A model generated the notes under the pieces. That model was given only the letters and a program-made list of their open reading frames with translations, was not told the origin of the DNA and did not search any database. A program made the translations under genes and the position numbers. Below are positions 1,780 through 25,790 of a stretch of DNA of 38,309 nucleotides, in pieces. Each line of letters starts with the position of its first letter. Positions within the stretch are counted from its first letter, which is position 1. The stretch is from a virus: the IMG/VR virus record IMGVR_UViG_3300028024_000001, positions 1-38,309 of that record; one strand, given 5' to 3'.

Positions 1780-3936
1780 ATGGCGCGCATTCCACTCGGC
1801 AATCAGGGCGATTCTGTCAGCCAGCCAGCGCAGCAGGTGCAAACCAGTGCCGCGGACTTCGGCGGCCTGTCGGCGCAGGCCCGGCAAGGCGTCGGCGTGG
1901 CCGCTGAGCAGCTCGGCGACTCGCTCGCTGCGCAGCAGGCCAAGGTCAACGACGATCTGCAGCGCACCGCTGCGGCGACGGCGTATCAGCAGCATGCGAC
2001 GAACATGCAACTGGCGATGCACGATGCCGGCACGAAGCTACAGAGCGGTGATCTCGACCAGACCGGCTATCAGTCTGCAATCCAGGATGCCCAGAAGCAG
2101 TCGTACGACTCGACCATCGGGGCGTTGCCCGACAATCACTACAAGAACGTCGCGAACATCCAGTCGCAGGGGATCAATCGCACAGTACAGCTCGGCACAC
2201 AGGAGGCGCTGACGAAGAATTCGCAGCAGCTGATCGCGACCAATGCACAGTCGTTGCTGGATACGGCCGGCAAGAGCATCGCAGTCGCGCCGGCGACGAT
2301 CGATTCGACGGTTTCGAGCACGCGCTCGGCATATCTGAGCGCAGCCGCCGCCGCGGGAATCCCGAAACCGACCGCCGACAAGGTCGCGCAGGATTGGGCC
2401 GACAGCCAGTATGCGAGCCACGCCGAGAGTGCCGTTATCGCTGCCCGCTCGAACGGGGACCTTGCAGCGCTCCAGAGGCTGCAGACTGATCTGACGTCGC
2501 CGGATGGCTTCTATTCTGGCAAGCTCGACGCGAACGCGCGTAACCGCGTGCTGTCGACGGCTGTATCCCAGAGCCTCGCGCTGCAGAATCAGACTGATGC
2601 GGCCGCGCAGGCGCGCGAGACCCAGGCGGCCAGCGCCTTCAATCAGGGTCTCGACCTGATGAATCAGGGTAAGCAGTTCAGCCCTACATACATCAAGCAG
2701 ATCACCGATGCGACCGCCGGCACGTCGCTGGCCGCCCAGACGCAGGAACTGATCGCGGGTAGCGCCAGGAATGCGGGCTTCTCGACGTTGCCGGTTCCGC
2801 AGATGCGTGCGGCAATCCAGAGCGATCAGGCGGCGGCGAATACTCCGGGCGTTGGTACGGATCCGGCGATCGCGGCCGCCGTGAAGCAGCGGCAGCAGAT
2901 CTACACCGCGAGCGTGGAGGCATACCAGAAAGACCCATGGAATGCCGCGCTCGACCGTGGCGTGATCCAGGCCGTGCCGCAGATAGATACCTCGAACATC
3001 CCGGCGCTGACCGCGTCGCTCGCCGCGCGCGGCAAGGCGGCTGGAATCGTCGATCAGGCCGCCGGACGTCAGGTTTCGCTGCTGACGCCAGATGAAGCGC
3101 AGAACGTACTGAAGACCGTGACCGCGCTCCCAGTTGATGCTCAGGCTCAGGTGCTGAACAGCATCGGCGGCGCGTTCGGCCAGGGCGCGCGCATCAACGA
3201 TCTGGCGCAGCAGTGGAAGGAAAAGAATCCGGCTGTCGCTCTCGCACTGAAGGCGGGCGCCGCCGGCGGCAACGGCTCGCCGCTCACGACGGTCACCGGC
3301 CAGCCAGTCGGCGCATTCATCCTGTCTGGGCAGCAGGCAATCGCCGACAAGACAGTCAAGGTCGACGAGATGGCCGGCACCGGCATGCACGCGACGATTG
3401 CGACCGCGATCGACGGCGCGATGCCGCCCGATCAGGCGACCGACGCCAAGGAAAGTGCGTATTACATTGCGATCGGCAGCGCCGCGCGCAACGGCCGCAC
3501 GACGCCGAACAGCACCGATATCCAGAACGGCATCGATGCTGCGACCGGTGGCATATCCACCACTGGCGGCGCGCGTTACAACGGCAATCCGAACCGCGTC
3601 GCGATGCCGTATGGCTGGAAAGAGGGTGATTTTCAGGCCAGCGTCAAGAGCGCTGACGTCGGCAACATCGAGAACACCGTCAACGGCAAGCCGGTCGATA
3701 CGGTGTACGCCAATGGCAAACCGATTCCGGTCAGCGACTTCATGGCTAAATTCCCGAGCTACCAACTGGTGCGCGTCGGCGTGCGCGGCACGTATGCGGT
3801 TGCGACCGGCTCGAAGTTCGTTCAGGACTCGACGGGCGCTCCCGTAACAGTTCACCTTTCGCTGGGCCAGAAAGCGAAATCTGCGACGTCGGCAGCCACC
3901 GAGCAGACGCCTGACATGATCAACAACCCATTCTGA
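1780..3936 (+). CDS. Internal virion / ejection protein B-like (718 aa)
   Basis: Long Ala/Gln-rich ORF with high GC3, in a position syntenic with T7 gp15-like core proteins. Confidence 0.6.
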   Translation: MARIPLGNQGDSVSQPAQQVQTSAADFGGLSAQARQGVGVAAEQLGDSLAAQQAKVNDDLQRTAAATAYQQHATNMQLAMHDAGTKLQSGDLDQTGYQSAIQDAQKQSYDSTIGALPDNHYKNVANIQSQGINRTVQLGTQEALTKNSQQLIATNAQSLLDTAGKSIAVAPATIDSTVSSTRSAYLSAAAAAGIPKPTADKVAQDWADSQYASHAESAVIAARSNGDLAALQRLQTDLTSPDGFYSGKLDANARNRVLSTAVSQSLALQNQTDAAAQARETQAASAFNQGLDLMNQGKQFSPTYIKQITDATAGTSLAAQTQELIAGSARNAGFSTLPVPQMRAAIQSDQAAANTPGVGTDPAIAAAVKQRQQIYTASVEAYQKDPWNAALDRGVIQAVPQIDTSNIPALTASLAARGKAAGIVDQAAGRQVSLLTPDEAQNVLKTVTALPVDAQAQVLNSIGGAFGQGARINDLAQQWKEKNPAVALALKAGAAGGNGSPLTTVTGQPVGAFILSGQQAIADKTVKVDEMAGTGMHATIATAIDGAMPPDQATDAKESAYYIAIGSAARNGRTTPNSTDIQNGIDAATGGISTTGGARYNGNPNRVAMPYGWKEGDFQASVKSADVGNIENTVNGKPVDTVYANGKPIPVSDFMAKFPSYQLVRVGVRGTYAVATGSKFVQDSTGAPVTVHLSLGQKAKSATSAATEQTPDMINNPF

Positions 3937-13243: not shown

Positions 13244-13806
13244 GCGGATGGAGTGATGCAATCAATGTGGTGGCGAAGCTGGCCCCGACGATCGCCAGCG
13301 TGATCGGTGGCCCGCTTGCCGGCGGCGCGGTCACGGCGCTCGAGTCAGTGTTTGGTATCAACTCTCCGCCTGACGCCTCGATCGATGACCGGCAGGCCGC
13401 CGTAGCCGCGGCAATCAGCGGCGCGACGCCAGAGCAACTGGCGGCGATGCGCAAGGCCGACCAGGACTACGCCGCGCGCATGGCCGAGGCCGGATTCAAG
13501 AACGTCGAGACGCTCGCCGCGCTGTCGGTTCAAGATCGCGCCAGCGCGCGCGCCATGCAGATCAGCACCAAAAGCCTGACGGCGCCGTTTCTCGCCATGT
13601 TCGTGACGCTCGGCTTCTTCGGCGTGCTGGCGGTGATGATGTTCTATACCCTGCCGGCCGCGACACACGACGCACTGATGCTCATGCTCGGTTCGCTCGG
13701 CACCGCTTGGACTGGCGTCATTGCCTACTACTTCGGCAGTTCGGCCGGCAGTGATCGAAAGACCGAGTTGCTTGCACAATCCACTCCCACAGGAACAGGA
13801 CAATGA
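13240..13806 (+). CDS. 3TM holin-like membrane protein (GTA_holin_3TM / PF11351-like, 188 aa)
   Basis: ATGA overlap with the endolysin stop. A soluble N-terminal half is followed by TM segments FLAMFVTLGFFGVLAVMMF and LMLMLGSLGTAWTGVIAYYFG. Confidence 0.55.
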   Translation: MSGWSDAINVVAKLAPTIASVIGGPLAGGAVTALESVFGINSPPDASIDDRQAAVAAAISGATPEQLAAMRKADQDYAARMAEAGFKNVETLAALSVQDRASARAMQISTKSLTAPFLAMFVTLGFFGVLAVMMFYTLPAATHDALMLMLGSLGTAWTGVIAYYFGSSAGSDRKTELLAQSTPTGTGQ

Positions 13807-14996
13807 AACGCATCATCACAGGCGCGATCGCGGCGCTGCTGTCGCTTTCGGCGCTCGCCGCGACGACGATCCCGGTTCAGTCGTTGACGCCGACAGGATC
13901 GACAGCAGGCCAGGCGATCGTCTCGACTGGCCCGACCGGCTTACCCGCATGGGGTAGCGTCACCGCAACGGCGCTGGCGGCACAGGCAGCGAATACGGTT
14001 GTCGCGAATATCACGGCATCGAGCGCATCGCCGACTGCGGTTGCGATTCCGACTTGCAACACGTCGACGAGCGCGCTCCAGTACACACCGGTTACCGGCT
14101 GGACCTGCTACGCCAACTCGGCCACTACGACCGGCACGCTTGCGCAGTTCGCCACAGGCGGTGCGATCAACCCTGTATCGACTGGCGCAACGACTCCCGG
14201 CACGGGCTCTTTCACCACGCTGGTAGCAAGTGGCGGCATCAGCGGCACCGGGTTCAATAATCTGTTTGCCTCACCGCCTAATATCGGTCTGGTTGCGCCG
14301 GCCGCAGGCAAATTCACCACGCTTCAGGCGACGAGTACGCTAACCGGATTTACCGGCCGGCTGCTCAACATTCAGGTCTTCTCGTCGACCGGCACTTATA
14401 CGCCGACGACCGGGACCGCTGCGGTATATGTGAAGGTGCAGGCGGGCGGTGGCGCGGGCGGCGGAACGCCGACAACTAGCACCGGCCAAGCCGCTGCGGG
14501 AAGCGGTGGAACCGCCGGGGCATATGGGGAGGGTTACTACACAAGCGGCTTCTCTGGGGTCACGGTGACGGTCGGCGGCGGGGGATCTGGCGTATCCGGC
14601 TCAGCGGGCGGCGCGGGATCAGCATCGAGCTTCGGCGCACTTCTGTCGTGCCCCGGTGGCGCGGGCGGCGCGCCTGGAACTGCGAACGCCGGCCCGTGGG
14701 TGACTGCTGCGTCGGGAAATACCTCTGCGTGTACTGGAACTGCGTTGTTCAACCAGCTCGGCGTGCAAGGCGGTCAGTCAATTGTAGTATCAGCGACGGC
14801 ATCAAATGCAGGCAGTGGCGCCGGCACGGCGTTCGGGCCGGGTCCTGCTGGCGCTTGGTCGGCTCCGGCTCCTGGTGCTGCTGCTCAGTCATATGGCGCA
14901 GCGGGCGCTGGCGCAAATGCCCCGGCATCAAACGCAGCTCAGGCTGGGGGATCTGGTAAGCAGGGTATCGTCGAAGTATTCGAGTTCAGTCAGTAA
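13803..14996 (+). CDS. Secreted glycine-rich-domain protein (397 aa) with Sec-type signal peptide
   Basis: N-terminus MKRIITGAIAALLSLSALA-ATT. Strong RBS (AGGAACAGGA). The C-terminal half is Gly/Ala/Ser/Thr-rich with GGGAGGG and VTVGGGGSG blocks, as in phage glycine-rich fiber domains. Confidence 0.7.
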   Translation: MKRIITGAIAALLSLSALAATTIPVQSLTPTGSTAGQAIVSTGPTGLPAWGSVTATALAAQAANTVVANITASSASPTAVAIPTCNTSTSALQYTPVTGWTCYANSATTTGTLAQFATGGAINPVSTGATTPGTGSFTTLVASGGISGTGFNNLFASPPNIGLVAPAAGKFTTLQATSTLTGFTGRLLNIQVFSSTGTYTPTTGTAAVYVKVQAGGGAGGGTPTTSTGQAAAGSGGTAGAYGEGYYTSGFSGVTVTVGGGGSGVSGSAGGAGSASSFGALLSCPGGAGGAPGTANAGPWVTAASGNTSACTGTALFNQLGVQGGQSIVVSATASNAGSGAGTAFGPGPAGAWSAPAPGAAAQSYGAAGAGANAPASNAAQAGGSGKQGIVEVFEFSQ

Positions 14997-15495: not shown

Positions 15496-16554
15496 TTATG
15501 CAGCAAGGGTTTGCACGTTTTCCGCTTCCGGTTGTGCCCAGATTGTGACCATGTTGGCGTGTTCTGCCAGATGGTCCGGTGCAAGATGGGCATACCGGAG
15601 AACGTGCTCATACTTCGCCCATCCCCCAAGTTCCATCAGACGGTTCAGCGGCGTGCCCGCCTGCACATGCCAGCTTGCCCATGTGTGGCGCACGTCATGA
15701 AACCGGAAATTCTCGATCCCGGCGCGGGCGCACTGCCGGTCCCACTGCGCACTGTTCCAGCCGTCGGCCGGTATCGGCTTGCCGTTCCTGACGAACACGA
15801 ATTGCTCGTGCCTGCCGAGCCACCGCCGGATAGTCTCGACCGCATCCTCGTTCAGCGGCACGCCGATCGGTTTGCGCGCCTTGGCCTGATCCGGGTGAAT
15901 CCATGCCCGGCGGTTCACCAGATCGATCTGCGACCATTCAAGCTCAAGCAGGTTGGCGCGGCGCAGCCCAGTAGCGAACCCGAGAATTGCCACATCCCGC
16001 ATCCATTGCGACCTGATCGCCGAAATCAGCCGCTGCGCTTCCGGCTTCGTGATCCAGCGAATGCGCCGGTTCGCCACCTTCAGGTCTTCCAGCTTCGGAG
16101 CCCGGTCGATCCATTCCCACTTGTCGGCGGCCAGCTTCAGCATGATCCGCATCGTGGCGAGGTACTTGTTTTTCGTCGCGCGCGAAACGAGCTTCTCTTC
16201 AGTCTTGCACCGCTGGTCCAACTCGGGCAACGCTTTGACTATCTCGTCGGCCGTGAGCGAACCTATCTGGCGACCGCCGAAAACCTTCGTGAAATGCCGG
16301 ATGTGAATCACGCGATTGCCGTAGTCCGCGAGGTGTTCGCATTCCGCTAACATTCGCTCTGCCGCTTCTTCCCATCTGTATGCGGGCCGCTCGCCCATCC
16401 GCGCGACTCGCCACAGTTCATGCTTTACCTTATCGTGATACTCCTGAGCTTCCTTTCGGTCGGTCGTGCCAGTCGTTTCTCTAATGCGGCCGCCGCCTGG
16501 CTTACGGATGTCGAGGTGCCAGACGTCCGAGCCTTTGCGCTTTCGGATTGACAT
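15496..16554 (-). CDS. int: Tyrosine integrase (352 aa)
   Basis: Catalytic signature ATGLRRANLLELEW ... HDVRHTWASWHVQAG ... LGGWAKYEHVLRYAHL (R, HxxR, Y). I chose the start MSIRKRKG because it has a GGAG RBS. The listed ORF extends 28 codons further upstream. Confidence 0.9.
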   Translation of the reverse strand: MSIRKRKGSDVWHLDIRKPGGGRIRETTGTTDRKEAQEYHDKVKHELWRVARMGERPAYRWEEAAERMLAECEHLADYGNRVIHIRHFTKVFGGRQIGSLTADEIVKALPELDQRCKTEEKLVSRATKNKYLATMRIMLKLAADKWEWIDRAPKLEDLKVANRRIRWITKPEAQRLISAIRSQWMRDVAILGFATGLRRANLLELEWSQIDLVNRRAWIHPDQAKARKPIGVPLNEDAVETIRRWLGRHEQFVFVRNGKPIPADGWNSAQWDRQCARAGIENFRFHDVRHTWASWHVQAGTPLNRLMELGGWAKYEHVLRYAHLAPDHLAEHANMVTIWAQPEAENVQTLAA

Positions 16555-16748
16555 TTTTTGCTCCTTGGTTCCGTCTGCGCCGGTCGGTTCGGATTGTACG
16601 CCGTCGCCAGTTTCAGCTTGTCGGGCCAGATGCGCCACTGGTTGCCGATCTGGAAGAAGCCCATTTCTTCCTTATGGGCGTACACAGTGGAGTAAGAGAC
16701 GCCGAGCAGGGCGGCTGCTTCCTTCAGGGTGAGGGCTGGCTCCATCAT
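16425..16748 (-). CDS. xis: Excisionase / AlpA-type HTH DNA-binding protein (107 aa as an open frame)
   Basis: N-terminus LTLKEAAALLGVSYSTVYAHKEEMGFFQIGNQWRIWPDKL matches the excisionase-family HTH. The ORF runs 130 nt into int in another frame. Confidence 0.65.
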   Translation of the reverse strand: MMEPALTLKEAAALLGVSYSTVYAHKEEMGFFQIGNQWRIWPDKLKLATAYNPNRPAQTEPRSKKCQSESAKARTSGTSTSVSQAAAALEKRLARPTERKLRSITIR

Positions 16749-18464: not shown

Positions 18465-18953
18465 TCAATACTCCGTAGGTACATGCTTGCCATCGTTCGC
18501 GAACTCTTTATGAAGGCGGATCGATGCCTCGACATATGCCTTATGCGCGTCTTCTGGATTAGCAAACAATCCCAAGTGATAGACAACGTGGTTGGACGTT
18601 ATCCGTGCTCTCCATTTCTTCGAATCTATGGCCCAGTAGACGCCCTTAAATCCAGACCGGCTCGTGGCTTTGAGCCTTCGGTTGGTTGAGTTTTGAGAGA
18701 GATTGCATTCCCGGAGATTCGAACGCCTGTTATCCAGCTTGTTGCCGTTTATGTGATCAACAAGAATATTCCTGTCAGTGATTCCCAAGATAGTCCGGTG
18801 CATCAGAACAGTCTTCTGCTTATTTGCGCCTACCCTTACAAGTCGCGCCGCATAACCTCGGTTACTGAATTTCCATTTGTTCATTGCCAAGGCGTCGTAG
18901 TCGTCGTCATCTACGAGTGCTACCTTTCCTTGAGTGAGTTGGATCTCTTTCAT
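18465..18953 (-). CDS. HNH homing endonuclease with AP2 DNA-binding domain (162 aa)
   Basis: HNH core LMHRTILG...VDHINGNKLDNRRSNLREC, followed by an AP2-like SGFKGVYW...KWRARI...LGLFANPEDAHKAY. The gene is visibly AT-richer than its flanks. Confidence 0.85.
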   Translation of the reverse strand: MKEIQLTQGKVALVDDDDYDALAMNKWKFSNRGYAARLVRVGANKQKTVLMHRTILGITDRNILVDHINGNKLDNRRSNLRECNLSQNSTNRRLKATSRSGFKGVYWAIDSKKWRARITSNHVVYHLGLFANPEDAHKAYVEASIRLHKEFANDGKHVPTEY

Positions 18954-19834
18954 GATTGCTCCTTTGCGCGGGAGGCGAGTTCAACCAGTTCATCACGCAG
19001 ACCCGCAAGCCCGCTAATGTCTAGCCCGGCTGATGCCTGTCCGTTCCACAGCATCAACGTTTCGATAAGGTCTTTGGTGATCGTGGCAATCTGTGATGTT
19101 GGAGAATCCGTCACCGCCTCGTCTGCTTGCTCGCTGGCGCGCCGACGCTCTGGCATAGTGTGATCGCAGCCTTCGACGCCATTGCAGATCGGGCATGGCA
19201 AGTACGGATGTCGCGCGCCTACGGCATAAACCAATGGCGGCATCATCCCGGACGTGTATTCCCCTCCGTCCATCGCTTTCAGGCACTCCATCAGACGCAT
19301 TACACGGTCATCACGTGCGTTGATTGATCCGTGACACCCAAGAACTGCCGTGACCTGATTGATAGAGTCGTACAGGTCACGCCAGCGGCACATGGACTTG
19401 ATAGTTTCTTCCGTTTGCCATTGCGGAGCGTCTGCTTGCTCGGCGTCACCGCAGGGTTGCGCGGGAGCGGCGGGATGGAGTCCGCTGCAATTCATTGCGC
19501 AGCCGGTCCCTTCACAATCGAAGCACTTGTTATGCGCCAACACGATGCCCTCCACGGTCTCGCTTGAAATAGTCTCGCCAAACCAGATAATTTCTTCCCT
19601 TCCACAACGTATCGACCAGCCTTTATACGGGTTGGACCCAGCCCAATGCGCGATCCATTGCTTGACCTGCGGCACGGCTTGCTTGCTTGCAAGCAGGGCG
19701 CGGGCAGCGTCGTACACGTACGGCTTCAGGTCCGTCTGGCCTTCCTTGATAGTGAAACCGTGCGCCATGAAAATGTCGCGAATCTGGTCCTTGGTCATAG
19801 CCTCTCCGGCGATCTTGGTAGTGGTGGTATTCAT
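18950..19834 (-). CDS. Hypothetical Cys-rich protein (294 aa)
   Basis: ATGA coupling on both sides. Two CxxCxG motifs (CFDCEGTG and CPICNGVEG). No family recognised. Confidence 0.5.
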   Translation of the reverse strand: MNTTTTKIAGEAMTKDQIRDIFMAHGFTIKEGQTDLKPYVYDAARALLASKQAVPQVKQWIAHWAGSNPYKGWSIRCGREEIIWFGETISSETVEGIVLAHNKCFDCEGTGCAMNCSGLHPAAPAQPCGDAEQADAPQWQTEETIKSMCRWRDLYDSINQVTAVLGCHGSINARDDRVMRLMECLKAMDGGEYTSGMMPPLVYAVGARHPYLPCPICNGVEGCDHTMPERRRASEQADEAVTDSPTSQIATITKDLIETLMLWNGQASAGLDISGLAGLRDELVELASRAKEQS

Positions 19835-20283
19835 GTCGTCTCGTCAGCGTGCGTCGCCCACACTGCAAACGGGCCGTCTTCGTTGTCGCAGATGTCGATC
19901 AGCCACCAACCAGGCGGCGGTGACTGGTCCCATTCTGATATGTCGCCGTTACCGTTGTCGAAGTACGAGACGTATGCCGGGTGTTCCAACGGCTCGGTTT
20001 CGAGGTAGACGATTTGCGTCTGGATGCCAGCACGCCGCTCAAGATCGGCCCATTGCTCTTTCGTGCAATGTTCAGTGCCGTCCATCGTCACTTGCCAGAA
20101 GTGAATGAGATCGGGATGGCTCCAGTAGCCGTTTTCGTCGCGAGTGACCGGGATTTTCTGAAGGAGCTTCACTGCGTCTGTATCGGTAGTCATGTCGGGT
20201 TCCTTGGCTTTCCGGTTGCGCTCGCGTTCTTCGTCGGCGCGCGTGAGCTCAGGGTATTCGTCGTAATGTCCGGGGTTATCCAT
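19831..20283 (-). CDS. Hypothetical protein (150 aa)
   Basis: GAGGA RBS, and coupled to the downstream gene. Acidic, Trp-rich protein. Confidence 0.5.
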   Translation of the reverse strand: MDNPGHYDEYPELTRADEERERNRKAKEPDMTTDTDAVKLLQKIPVTRDENGYWSHPDLIHFWQVTMDGTEHCTKEQWADLERRAGIQTQIVYLETEPLEHPAYVSYFDNGNGDISEWDQSPPPGWWLIDICDNEDGPFAVWATHADETT

Positions 20284-20290
20284 GTCGTCC

Positions 20291-21358
20291 TCAATTACTG
20301 TTCGATTGCTTCGCGCGCTGCGCGGATGAACTCTGCTGCCGCTTCCGCGTTGATCGCGTTACCGTAGGCGCGCAGTCGTCCCACTCGGGAGGGAGCCCCA
20401 TCAGCCAGCGGGAATGAGCCGGGTCTAACTGGCCGCCACTTTTCGTCCCGGCAGAGCAGCCAGTCAGCATCTCGCCAGAAGCCGTTAGTCGGGCCGGCTG
20501 CGTCAGGTCGATCGAGAACGCCGCCGTGCCCAACTCGTTGTTCCATCCCTTCCGGGCCGCTTCGTTCTCTGCTCCGGAGAGCGTCCGAGCTCCGTTCTCG
20601 CCGTCCAGCGCTCGCGGCGTCGGCCAGCTCGACAGCATCACGTAGTCGTCCAGGTTCCGGCGCCGGCCGCCCGTCCTCTCCACCATCCCGCTGCGCCCAT
20701 ACATTCCGTCCCGCGACTGCGGTGTCGGCCAACTGGAAAGCGTCGCCGCCATGCCGAGCGTCATCCCGAATCCGTTGTTCCCGTGTCGAGCTGCGCACTC
20801 CGCCCGCCGCGCTTCCCACGTCGAGTCGTTGTCGTTCTGCGGCCCCGCATTCGGCGTCGGCCACGATGCCAGCCACGCCACCCGACCCAGCAGAGCGTTC
20901 AGCGGCACGTTCGCGCACTCGCTTCCGTCCTTGTGGTCGCGCGTAGTCGGCGTCGGCCACGAAGTACGTTCTGTCGCGGATGTGCGGAGCACCGATGCCC
21001 GCAGACGGGAAAGGTGTCGCCCCGCAGGCGTAACCCAAGGCTTCCAGGTCATCGAAAACAAGGTCGATCCAAGGGTCGACGTCCTTGCTTGCAACCTGCT
21101 CGCCAAAGAGGGTTGCAGGTGCGCGCTCCTGGACGAGCCAGTGCCACGCCGGCCAGAGGTGCCGCTCGTCAGCAAACCCAAGTCCTTTGCCTGCCGCGCT
21201 GAAAGGTTGGCACGGACAGGAACCGGTCCAAACAGGTCGGTCATCAGGCCAGCCGGCGATTCGAAGCGCGTAGGACCAGACACCGATTCCGGCGAAGAAA
21301 TGGCACTGGGTGAATCCGCGAAGGTCGTCTGGTCGAACATCCTCAATGCTCCGTTCAT
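20291..21358 (-). CDS. Same-strand +1-frame ORF fully embedded in the methyltransferase gene (355 aa); carries 4x SWPTP repeats and [10 protein letters not shown]
   Basis: The frame is open for 1068 nt. It has a periodic SWPTPxx(R/L)DxxxG module and a C-terminal [19 protein letters not shown], which is like the motif IX region of phage C5-MTases. By hand count its GC3 exceeds that of the annotated frame in the distal half. Confidence 0.4.
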
Positions 21359-21449
21359 CAACTTCGCCGGCGGCGATATGCCCCTTGGCGATCAGGTTGC
21401 GCAGCCACTGCGCGGCGTATGGGTCGATCTCGTTGTAGTACGCGGCCAT
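20295..21449 (-). CDS. DNA (cytosine-5) methyltransferase (384 aa from [10 protein letters not shown])
   Basis: Motif I-like FFAGIGVW, motif [11 protein letters not shown], motif VI FGEQV, motif [17 protein letters not shown], and C-terminal motif X-like [14 protein letters not shown]. The middle about 150 aa is Arg/Gly/Ala/Asp-rich low complexity. Confidence 0.75.
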
Positions 21450-21552
21450 CGGTTCCTCGCCGGCATAGCCGAACAGATGTAAAAAGCGGGAGTCGTGCGG
21501 ACCTCCCTTCAAAACGCCACGCGGAGATCACCGCGCGTTCGGGGGTTACCTG

Positions 21553-22830: not shown

Positions 22831-23304
22831 TTATGGTTTGTGCTTCCTATTTGCACGTTCTTTCCCCTCGGACTTTTCGATGTGGGATGTCAAGTCTTCC
22901 TCGGCTGCCGCCAAGTCCCCATCCCGGAGGGAATTCTGCGCCTGCGTAAGAGCGCCCGCAACCTGCAGCGCAGCGCTGATATGAGCGAATAGTTTTGGGG
23001 CCGGAGCGCCAAGCCCGTCTACGCGTTCGACCCACGAAATCAGCTTTAATGCTTCGTGACTTAGCGACCCTTTCGGGTCTGTAATCGGCGCTTTGGACTT
23101 GTCCATGCCGAACACGAGCCAGTACGGATCCACCCGTAAAACCTTGCATATCGTGAGCATATTTGCCGCATCGAGGTTCTTTATGTTGCCATTCTCCCAA
23201 TCCGTGACAGTTGGGGCAGAAACTTCGCACGCGCGCGCAAGCTCGGCTTTCGACATGTGTCGCGCCGTCCGCGCCTCTGTGATTCGCCGATTCCAGTTTG
23301 CCAT
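22831..23304 (-). CDS. cI-like repressor, XRE-family HTH, no S24 peptidase domain (157 aa)
   Basis: HTH MSKAELARACEVSAPTVTDWENGNIKNLDAANMLTICKVLRV. Divergent from the cro-like gene. The C-terminal half has no Ser-Lys LexA-like motifs. Confidence 0.8.
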   Translation of the reverse strand: MANWNRRITEARTARHMSKAELARACEVSAPTVTDWENGNIKNLDAANMLTICKVLRVDPYWLVFGMDKSKAPITDPKGSLSHEALKLISWVERVDGLGAPAPKLFAHISAALQVAGALTQAQNSLRDGDLAAAEEDLTSHIEKSEGKERANRKHKP

Positions 23305-24724: not shown

Positions 24725-24843
24725 TCATCGAGGCCAAAGTTCTGCCGCCGCCGGAAGAGGGCTACGACTACCGGCAGGGTCTGTATCTCCGCTTTGGCGA
24801 TGTGGACTTGGACGTCGCCGCCAATGGCGAGGTGTCTGCGTGA
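24721..24843 (+). CDS. Possible small ORF (40 aa)
   Basis: ATGA overlap upstream and GTGA overlap downstream. Hand translation MIIEAKVLPPPEEGYDYRQGLYLRFGDVDLDVAANGEVSA. Confidence 0.3.
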   Translation: MIIEAKVLPPPEEGYDYRQGLYLRFGDVDLDVAANGEVSA

Positions 24844-25790
24844 GCGTCGAGGCGATTACATGGGCATTGGGGCAGCACGTGGGCCGCTCGACGGCCAAGT
24901 TCGTCCTGACGATCCTCGCCAACTGCGCGGACGGCAAGGAATTCCTCTGCTTCCCGTCCGTTGCCTACATCGCCGAAGCAACCGATCAGGACCGCAAGAC
25001 GGTGATTGCGGCGATTGCAAAGCTTATCGAAATCGGGCTTGTCGAAGATACCGGAGAAAGAAGAGGGACAACGGCGCAGGTCATTGTGTACCGGCTTCTT
25101 GTTGGTAAAAACGGAACTGTTAAAGAGTCCCAAAAACGGAACAGTTCCAAAAACGGAACAGTTCCAAAAACGGCGGGTAACAGTCCCAAAAACGGCGTTA
25201 AACAGTACCGAAAACGGATGGAAACAGTACCGAAAACGGGACACGGAACCGTCATTAAACGTAATGAAACATCAGGAACCGTCAGTCCTGCTTCGCCAAC
25301 GGCTTCGCCGCCGGCTGCGCGCGGTACCCGCTTGCCAAAGGACTGGGTTCTGACAAAGCCTCTTGGCGTATGGGCAGCAGGCGAGCAGCCCACATGGACG
25401 CCCGAGCATATTCGCAAGGTTGCCGCCTCGTTCAAGGATTACTGGATCGCGAAGGCTGGCAAGGATGGACTGAAGACCGACTGGGAAGCAACGTGGCGCA
25501 ACTGGGTACGCAACGAGAAGGCGCTGGGCGGCGCGCAGGCCTCCGCTGGTGCGCCGGTATCGGGAAGCTGGTGGGAGGGCGACGCAGGCATCAATGCGAA
25601 GGGCGCAGAGCTAAGTATTCCCCGCCACAAGGATGAGCCAACGCCGCATTACCTGCTGCGTATCGCGAAGGCTGCCGGGCGCGGTCCCTGGATCGACCAC
25701 ATTCTGCGGCACGCACGCACCAGCGGAGAGCGCTGGTTTAACCAGGTTGTCGCCACGCTTGGCGACGCACTGCTGCCGACGGACTTCTGA
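24840..25790 (+). CDS. Replication initiation protein: N-terminal HTH plus C-terminal DnaT-like domain (316 aa, GTG start)
   Basis: HTH_36-like N-terminus. Central iteron-encoded linker. C-terminal LPKDWVLTKPLGVWAAGE...FKDYWIAKAGKDGLKTDWEATWRNWVRN resembles DnaT-type replication domains. Confidence 0.7.
   Translation: MSVEAITWALGQHVGRSTAKFVLTILANCADGKEFLCFPSVAYIAEATDQDRKTVIAAIAKLIEIGLVEDTGERRGTTAQVIVYRLLVGKNGTVKESQKRNSSKNGTVPKTAGNSPKNGVKQYRKRMETVPKTGHGTVIKRNETSGTVSPASPTASPPAARGTRLPKDWVLTKPLGVWAAGEQPTWTPEHIRKVAASFKDYWIAKAGKDGLKTDWEATWRNWVRNEKALGGAQASAGAPVSGSWWEGDAGINAKGAELSIPRHKDEPTPHYLLRIAKAAGRGPWIDHILRHARTSGERWFNQVVATLGDALLPTDF
25107..25252. repeat. Iteron array (about 7 copies), putative origin of replication inside the replication gene
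   Basis: Units CC(C)AAAAACGGAACAGTT x2 are exact. Variants are CCAAAAACGGCGGGTAACAGT, CCCAAAAACGGCGTTAAACAGT, ACCGAAAACGGATGGAAACAGT and ACCGAAAACGGGACACGGAACCGT. An AT-rich stretch follows. Confidence 0.8.

Follow-up and report, generated by a model that had tools for sequence, protein, structure and literature searches.

A methyltransferase gene with a second gene in its +1 frame

The virus record IMGVR_UViG_3300028024_000001, a stretch of 38,309 nucleotides (nt) that is called the window here and whose numbering is used throughout, carries on its minus strand a C5-cytosine DNA methyltransferase gene (A) that contains a second gene (B) in the +1 frame. Both frames are conserved and under selection, B has its own start, and A combines a methyltransferase fold with a disordered centre. 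The explanation that we favour, with a probability of about 0.8, is that the locus is a nested gene pair whose products together form a single phage C5-cytosine DNA methyltransferase, each as one subunit. A would be translated from ATG 21449 to give the catalytic large domain, with motifs IV, VI and VIII and an FFAGIG segment resembling the S-adenosylmethionine (AdoMet) loop, followed by ~150 disordered residues and a conserved end whose motif X-like helix would return to the large domain. B would be translated independently in the +1 frame, from an internal Shine-Dalgarno sequence and ATG within the DERSIEDV codons of A. It would consist of a helix-hairpin segment overprinted on motifs IV-VIII of A, cassette-like WPTP modules that vary in number and are four in the window, and a conserved C-terminus, and would replace the small target-recognising domain and the motif IX that A lacks. 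The active enzyme would then be an A:B complex, probably an orphan that protects phage DNA. By analogy with the two-chain methyltransferase M.EcoHK31I, A and B would be expected to associate, B to provide DNA recognition, and both to be needed for activity.

An earlier reading of this sequence (the original prediction) had placed two open frames on the same strand, with B in +1 relative to A, and the coordinates of the two open reading frames (ORFs) on the minus strand confirm this layout (Table 1). Homologues of A begin at ATG 21449, which has GAGG 5 nt upstream. B, for which ATG at 21358 and TTG at 21361 are other in-frame start candidates, stops 4 nt past the stop of A in the window; in most other loci it terminates inside A. 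The G+C content of the gene is 65%. At third codon positions (GC3) it amounts to 26/28 in the first 28 codons of A, to 0.68-0.69 for A and 0.65-0.71 for B in the proximal overlap, and to 0.84 for B versus 0.61 for A in the centre, and the hand counts made earlier proved accurate. In frame B, the predicted four SWPTP copies are present, followed by a C-terminal stretch that resembles motif IX. The 12-mer CGGYGTCGGCCA encodes WPTP when read in frame B. The gene contains four copies of it and the remainder of the window none, against 0.03 copies predicted by shuffles. Three of these module anchors lie where they had been placed (20615, 20852 and 20948), and the third of the four starts at 20720 instead of 20719.

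Selection acts on different frames along the gene

Selection was analysed in 368 gene pairs with 70-97% nucleotide identity, aligned as DNA without a frame reference. Differences were counted by codon phase, position 1 of A being position 3 of B, and Nei-Gojobori ratios of nonsynonymous to synonymous rates (dN/dS) were calculated for each frame. The constrained frame changes from zone to zone (Table 1). Zone 1, which holds the start of B and its first ~44 codons, is constrained in A only, and this leader of B is unconstrained. In zone 2, which carries motifs IV-VIII and reads LSARQAK...LRASVLRTS in frame B, both frames are constrained and the synonymous rate (dS) of A drops from 0.77 to 0.27. 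Zone 3 is constrained in B only; it holds the four WPTP modules of B and, in A, an open spacer rich in R, G, A and D. Both frames are constrained again in zone 4, and zone 5, with the C-terminal helix of A and an unconstrained tail of B, is constrained in A only. A column analysis of 70 loci gave the same zone picture as the pairwise counts. Synonymous sites of A are suppressed exactly where B is conserved.

Of the ~1.07 kb of dual coding that had been proposed, the openness of both frames holds for the full length, and the true double constraint is limited to ~360 nt (A codons 81-160 and 321-360), with 480 nt in the centre constrained in B only. The impression that the centre of A looks like an off-frame translation was well founded: R, G, A and D make up 57% of its central 160 amino acids (aa), dN/dS is 1.73, and the predicted structure is disordered. 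Conservation of this region at the amino-acid level was not found, identity being 0.15-0.27. The centre of A is simply whatever frame B leaves behind, read through.

Both frames are kept open across loci

About 160 loci with 47-71% G+C from Proteobacteria, Firmicutes and phages were compared (80 genome loci, 80 viral contigs, and several annotated phage and plasmid records). Both frames stay open across homologues, a point that the original prediction had proposed to check. In 77 genome loci (53-71% G+C), the +1 frame is open over a mean of 90% of A, compared with 19% for the +2 frame and 52% for the best antisense frame. B is +1 relative to A in every locus, including those of Rhodobacter, Xanthomonas and E. 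coli Kagunavirus phages and of distant Acidobacteria and Alphaproteobacteria, and the third frame is open in none of the loci. In the window taken alone, the length of the +1 ORF is not significant, since 171 of 1000 synonymous shuffles of A equal or exceed it (p ~0.17); the 12-mer repeats and the comparison between loci are highly significant. For 21 of the 77 loci, mainly enterobacterial ones at 53-58% G+C, none of 1000 synonymous shuffles reached the observed +1 length. Relatives at 47-55% G+C gave 0-2 such cases in 5000 shuffles, and those at 47-50%, Paenibacillus phage Bloom and the P. polymyxa plasmid pAP1, gave 0 in 5000. B was not found away from the methyltransferase gene in any of ~165 loci.

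Frame A is maintained as well. Motif IV and YGNAI lie in a single stop-free frame in ~153 of the 157 loci where pattern matching detected the two of them. If B alone mattered, A would be expected to remain open through the centre in only 9.7 of 115 genes, the share of synonymous B shuffles that leave it open being 8%. The persistence of frame A in the B-coded centre far exceeds chance. Four loci have a broken A, with one stop between motifs IV and X (L027, L083) or with the two motifs in different frames (L061, L064); these are probably pseudogenes or assembly errors. In the window, a 243-aa ORF is also open antisense to the gene (20751-21482, plus strand). It looks like a by-product of high G+C, because antisense openness averages just the 52% of gene length given above.

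Codon choice in A at the start of B

The ATG of B at 21340-21338 is formed by GAT|G of the Asp-Val codons of A in IEDV, and the Arg and Ser codons of A create (A)AGGAG 8 nt upstream of it. Codon choice at these sites was examined in 108 distinct genes, with the A-only zones as background. Asp at the start of B is encoded by GAT in 85% of the genes (background 36%). At the Shine-Dalgarno sequence, Arg is AGG or CGG in 65% versus 15% (AGG alone, 42% versus 3%) and Ser is AGY in 86% versus 27%. Binomial p values for these biases range from 1e-26 to 1e-36 without correction for kinship, though third positions here are near saturation. Among the matches listed, gene callers start most B homologues at the conserved Met. 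The sequence pattern indicates that B has its own conserved Shine-Dalgarno sequence and ATG, created by biased codon choice within DERSIEDV of A.

Gene A encodes a catalytic domain and a disordered centre

Structure prediction and profile matches let us assign gene A with confidence to the C5-cytosine DNA methyltransferases with a class I large-domain fold. The motifs FFAGIG, PCQPFS, GEQV, PHIRDR and YGNAI are all present at the ends of A at which they had been predicted. The two translations were searched separately, as the original prediction had suggested, and A matches PF00145 of Pfam (E 1.3e-11) at residues 94-186 of the 405-aa ORF, which covers motifs IV-VIII alone, and phrog_363 of PHROG over its full length (E 6.9e-87). 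Its profile aligns PCQPFS, GEQV and HIRDR to residues 72-179 of M.HhaI (E 8e-13). Motif VI reads EQV in place of ENV. FFAGIG is invariant among 102 homologues but is placed after an N-terminal segment, and its hidden Markov model alignment to M.HhaI 7-32 scores -0.6. More than 8000 homologues of A are found in the protein database, often on the same contigs as homologues of B.

In the alignment of A, residues 1-165 and 320-375 are nearly invariant, and the stretch between them is gap-ridden and of low complexity. The AlphaFold model (102 homologues) has a predicted local distance difference test score (pLDDT) of 82-97 for residues 1-167. Residues 171-322 are disordered, with pLDDT 35-54 and no secondary structure; beyond them the model has a weakly predicted hairpin (329-341) and, at the C-terminus, a confident helix (368-383; pLDDT 88-95). 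Foldseek aligned ~170 columns of this model to M.HhaI, M.HaeIII, DNMT2 and DNMT1 with a probability of 1.0. A folded small domain, i.e. a target recognition domain with motif IX between motifs VIII and X, was seen neither in the AlphaFold model of A nor in its central dN/dS and amino-acid identity.

Several variations were observed at the N-terminus and around motif IV. By eye, the motif order in residues 1-56 of A (21282-21449, minus strand) seems unusual, since segments resembling motifs II and III precede the motif I-like segment, which sits just upstream of PCQPFS. Firmicute relatives begin canonically with LFSGIGG, and in BLASTP the alignment of the window A to a canonical Firmicute A starts only at PCQPFS. 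Distant members (L066, L072, L073, L077) have PCPSFS or PCPPFS as motif IV, and L072 and L073 carry a Cys-rich insertion (CPSCGG...CLDC) after it.

Gene B belongs to a large family with mosaic WPTP modules

For B, 6914 homologues were found in the protein database. It matches phrog_1008 (E 1.2e-38) and phrog_31772 (E 4.5e-35), both families labelled DNA methyltransferase. Scans against Pfam and NCBIfam gave no match, neither database has a model for B, and a search of the Protein Data Bank (PDB) sequences with the full B profile gave insignificant, unrelated matches only. The profile of B retrieved 17,374 representative clusters at 50% identity, of which the best 150 were listed; distant single-frame relatives, if any, would fall outside these 150. 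The alignment of B shows conserved WPTP modules in the middle part and a nearly invariant C-terminus.

The modules form a mosaic. The B centres of 96 loci contain 318 modules with a median length of 36 aa. Grouped at 50% identity, these make up 51 types, which are combined in 73 architectures. Module types recur in different orders between loci, and the copy number ranges from 0 to 5 among the 77 genome loci. In the Nitratireductor soli locus (L073, ~2500-3000), 150 aa are inserted between the FPL... and RVGRLRxYGNA segments of A, an insertion that is also present in proteins P0171 and P0154. In frame B this insertion has an HNH-like motif, HAHHVDEDWTNNEPKNVQTLCVFCHQFWH, fused after RWLMGLPAAWDECAP, and frame A is open throughout.

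Relation of B to the variable half of divided methyltransferases

The conserved C-terminus of B resembles xLTPRECARLMGFPDxF by eye, and its motif IX-like stretch lies in the +1 frame and starts 41 nt upstream of YGNAI in every locus checked. For the motif X-like segment, hhalign puts YGNAI of A on residues 430-442 of E. coli Dcm (AYRQFGNSVVVPV), which is the correct place, with an insignificant probability of 0.3%. The C-terminal piece of A gave no Pfam match, and its profile found insignificant, unrelated PDB sequences only.

The strongest link of B to methyltransferases, an indirect one, comes from two phages. Nested BLOOM_57 of phage Bloom is homologous to B along its length (hhalign probability 97.7%), and both Bloom coding sequences are annotated as cytosine methyltransferase. 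In Mycobacterium phage Sabertooth (L168, 1014-2154), the alpha ORF gp79 ends just after motif VIII. The second protein, gp78, lies in +1 relative to gp79, shows homology to B (hhalign probability 89%) and contains, all in one frame, LPTP modules, then the motif IX-like EWMMGWEEGW (LNAAFSEWMMGWEEGWVTD) and then the motif X-like IIGNGVV (KIIGNGVVVQQAAAAI). Because EWMMGWEEGW is the counterpart of the C-terminal stretch of B, this order gives indirect support to motif IX in B. The gp78 frame is open from 1420, and the annotated overlap of the two genes is 26 nt. From the comparison with Bloom and Sabertooth, the B-type protein appears to correspond to the C-terminal half, with the variable region, of a C5-methyltransferase that is divided in two. 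The split version is carried by cluster A mycobacteriophages. A tblastn search with the B-type protein of P. polymyxa pAP1 matched 146 Mycobacterium phage records, and in almost every record sampled the match covers two annotated coding sequences. Among half-coverage matches of A, no single-frame fusion was found, only A proteins with shorter spacers.

Alternative explanations

Several results weigh against a two-subunit enzyme. The evidence for translation of B and for its binding to A is indirect. AlphaFold gave no compact fold for B on its own (105 homologues; pLDDT 62, predicted template modelling score 0.27), and Foldseek of this model against the PDB returned noise only (best E 0.5). The confident pieces are a helix at 71-88 and a hairpin at 95-117 (pLDDT 75-89), a short helix behind each WPTP and another that covers SRWLMG; such a poor stand-alone model would fit a subunit that folds on its partner. 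The original suggestion that the end of B resembles motif IX holds by eye. Pfam recognised no PF00145 in B or its 105 homologues, and nothing outside motifs IV-VIII of an A-B-A chimera, its C-terminus included; the C-terminal profile of B matched no PDB sequence, and its hhalign match to E. coli Dcm was insignificant and did not pick motif IX. Since profile methods recognise neither motif IX in B nor motif X in A, both assignments remain by eye. Finally, the target recognition domain is assigned to the alpha chain in M.EcoHK31I, the two-chain enzyme compared below, while the corresponding part of the window A is unconserved.

B might instead be a real, selected protein with another task, such as anti-restriction, DNA binding or regulation, that only shares its DNA with the methyltransferase gene. 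We consider this unlikely, although the missing Pfam, NCBIfam and structural matches, the lack of profile support for motif IX and the HNH-like domain fused to the C-terminus of B in some relatives would all agree with it. An unrelated protein would not be expected to stay with the methyltransferase gene throughout the loci surveyed. In Sabertooth, moreover, the B homologue runs in frame into the GNGVV motif X-like segment and supplies the part that is absent from the catalytic ORF. The lack of a folded small domain in A and the precedent of M.EcoHK31I also speak for two subunits of one enzyme.

The remaining alternatives concern the way in which B is expressed. The original prediction had offered an overprinted second gene, recoding, or a conserved frameshifted arrangement. 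The overprinted gene is the reading that the openness of both frames in ~160 loci, the frame-specific selection, the Shine-Dalgarno sequence and ATG of B, and the open centre of A support, and the frameshifted arrangement retains value only as an account of the possible origin of the layout. Under programmed recoding, a single polypeptide would pass from A to B by +1 after motif VIII and back by -1 before YGNAI, with single-frame products minor or absent. The selected frame does switch from A to B to A, and an A-B-A chimera would restore the canonical order of catalytic domain, variable region, motif IX and motif X. On the other hand, the chimera would leave only ~7 residues between LPP and GN, where the canonical spacing, that of M.HhaI, is ~17. 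Just 1 of 116 loci has an X_XXY_YYZ heptamer in the 90 nt before YGNAI, and no homopolymer in the window gene exceeds 4 nt. Constraint on B already covers the 80 codons before the proposed +1 shift, and constraint on A the 40 codons before the proposed -1 shift; B has a conserved Shine-Dalgarno sequence and ATG of its own; and A is maintained open through the centre against expectation, which recoding would not need. Recoding is therefore very improbable in our view. Least probable of all is an untranslated B, whose openness and apparent homologues would be by-products of high G+C and of the conservation of frame A. The 17% of shuffles that reach the +1 length in the window gene fit this idea, and in zone 1 the similarity in frame B is indeed a by-product of A. 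In the centre, however, dN/dS is 1.73 for A against 0.28 for B, the +1 ORF is kept at 47-55% G+C, where shuffles hardly ever reach its length, the synonymous sites of A are suppressed where B is conserved, and codon choice builds the start of B. The central selection pattern and the relatives at 47-50% G+C exclude a non-coding B.

The favoured nested pair of subunits can be extended, tentatively and with more doubt than confidence, to a bolder statement: the WPTP cassettes may be exchangeable and may set, perhaps multiply, the target specificity of an orphan methyltransferase, the visible gene may be a disordered tether in its centre, and the locus may belong to one of the largest and most widespread groups of long same-strand nested pairs. 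The last part refers to the ~1 kb length of B, at least 17,000 clusters at 50% identity, the occurrence in Proteobacteria and Firmicutes, and the split variant in actinophages.

Phage context and significance

The window is a temperate phage (Table 1). Just downstream of the methyltransferase gene lie two minus-strand ORFs, one without a PHROG match (18950-19834) and one matching only phrog_1372, a family of unknown function (19831-20283). A scan of the neighbours identified no restriction enzyme, and the gene therefore looks like an orphan phage methyltransferase in a leftward early operon.

Table 1. Positions of the nested genes, their selection zones and motifs, and other genes in the window. 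Rates are differences at A codon positions 1/2/3.
Feature	Position	Strand	Description
ORF A	20295-21512	-	405-aa ORF
Gene A (alpha-like subunit, proposed)	20295-21449	-	384 aa + stop; C5-methyltransferase catalytic domain, unconserved spacer, C-terminal segment with motif X-like YGNAI
ORF B	20291-21361	-	+1 relative to A
Gene B (beta-like subunit, proposed)	20291-21340	-	+1 frame; 349 aa + stop from family-conserved ATG 21340-21338
Putative Shine-Dalgarno sequence GGAG of B	21349-21352	-	8 nt upstream of B ATG; from A codons CGG-AGC (R-S of DERSIEDV)
Zone 1, A codons 1-80	21210-21449	-	Rates 0.073/0.053/0.337; dN/dS A 0.08, B 2.84; A only
Zone 2, A codons 81-160, motifs IV-VIII	20970-21209	-	Rates 0.127/0.073/0.171; dN/dS A 0.36, B 0.73; both frames
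Zone 3, A codons 161-320	20490-20969	-	Rates 0.354/0.190/0.163; dN/dS A 1.73, B 0.28; B only
Zone 4, A codons 321-360	20370-20489	-	Rates 0.117/0.058/0.129; dN/dS A 0.40, B 0.50; both frames
Zone 5, A codons 361-384 + stop	20295-20369	-	Rates 0.090/0.077/0.319; dN/dS A 0.12, B 2.33; A only
Motifs in A			FFAGIG aa 51-56, PCQPFS aa 79-84, GEQV aa 116-119, PHIRDR aa 155-160, YGNAI aa 362-366
PCQPFS, motif IV with catalytic cysteine	21198-21215	-	Frame A; invariant in 102 homologues; aligned to M.HhaI PCQ
YGNAI, motif X-like	20352-20366	-	Frame A
Motif IX-like stretch of B	20381-20413	-	11 aa; by eye only
WPTP module anchor 1	20948-20959	-	B aa 128-131
WPTP module anchor 2	20852-20863	-	B aa 160-163
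WPTP module anchor 3	20720-20731	-	B aa 204-207
WPTP module anchor 4	20615-20626	-	B aa 239-242
Tail fibre	13803-14996	+	
Integrase	15496-16638	-	
HNH endonuclease	18465-18953	-	
Repressor-like gene	22831-23304	-	
Replication protein (initiator)	24840-25790	+	

Genome pipelines usually call frame A alone, and both genes are annotated in only 4 of 40 sampled phage records (~1 in 10). Because annotation omits B, and Pfam and NCBIfam have no model for it, a protein family of thousands is largely invisible and the enzyme is described as a single chain with an odd low-complexity centre. Should target recognition lie in B, gene A alone would not suffice to predict, clone or engineer the specificity of these very common prophage methyltransferases. 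The locus is also a clean natural case in which the selected frame changes four times, useful for tests of overlapping-gene detection and for studying the evolution of overprinting and of disordered read-through spacers. The locus would gain in significance should the WPTP cassettes turn out to be exchangeable units of specificity.

Comparison with known systems

M.EcoHK31I from E. coli HK31 has the target YGGCCR. Its alpha chain is said to have been given as 309 aa and its beta chain as 176 aa by Lee et al. in 1995, so that beta would measure ~57% of alpha. The two chains must associate and both are needed for activity; beta is encoded inside the alpha gene in another frame, with internal initiation codons; and alpha carries motifs I-VIII, motif X and the predicted target recognition domain, with motif IX in beta (PMC2836561; PMC3404938). 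Compared by layout, the window locus is alike: A has motifs IV, VI and VIII and a motif X-like segment, and B is nested in +1 with a motif IX-like stretch and its own start. It differs in that B is much longer, reaching ~90% of A and ending 4 nt past it, and in that the conserved variable region lies in B and not in the alpha-like A. Furthermore, M.EcoHK31I belongs to a restriction-modification system, whereas the window gene appears to be an orphan in the early operon of a temperate phage. No protein named EcoHK31I was among the listed homologues of A, B and ORF28 of phage K1ind1.

M.AquI is a C5-methyltransferase that is split in the variable region into two polypeptides (PMC3404938). The M.AquI type and the Sabertooth pair gp79/gp78 resemble the window locus in that the break falls in the variable region and separates a catalytic chain with motifs I-VIII from a second chain. 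In these systems, however, the first ORF ends behind motif VIII and motif X is part of the second polypeptide, with the short annotated overlap of ~26 nt in Sabertooth. In the window, motif X was retained in, or transferred to, frame A, which continues through the entire B gene.

Three nested pairs have already been annotated in phages: ORF29/ORF28 of K1ind1 ('C-specific methylase' and 'Mte8-like protein'), a pair in Xanthomonas phage PhiXhv-18, and gp56/gp57 of Paenibacillus phage Bloom. The name 'Mte8' may be a Swiss-Prot mnemonic of an E. coli methylase. They have the same +1 nesting of the same two protein families, with B starting 82 nt (PhiXhv-18), 88 nt (K1ind1) and 202 nt (Bloom) after the start of A. 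They differ from the window in module number and type, and the Firmicute A begins with LFSGIGG, whereas the window A begins with YYNEIDP and has FFAGIG later. No paper on the nested arrangement in phages or on the B family was found in the searchable library.

A further likeness concerns the modules. The multispecific C5-methyltransferases of the Bacillus phages SPR, phi3T and rho11s are single polypeptides with tandem, exchangeable units of 30-50 aa in the variable region. Likened by description, the WPTP modules of B are also mosaic modules in a variable region, and we hypothesize that they act in specificity. The claim that the arrangement is outside standard annotation is correct in that it is usually missed, and not in that K1ind1, PhiXhv-18 and Bloom have annotated pairs. 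Its layout has already been established experimentally for M.EcoHK31I, and the gene described here joins a common but under-annotated kind.

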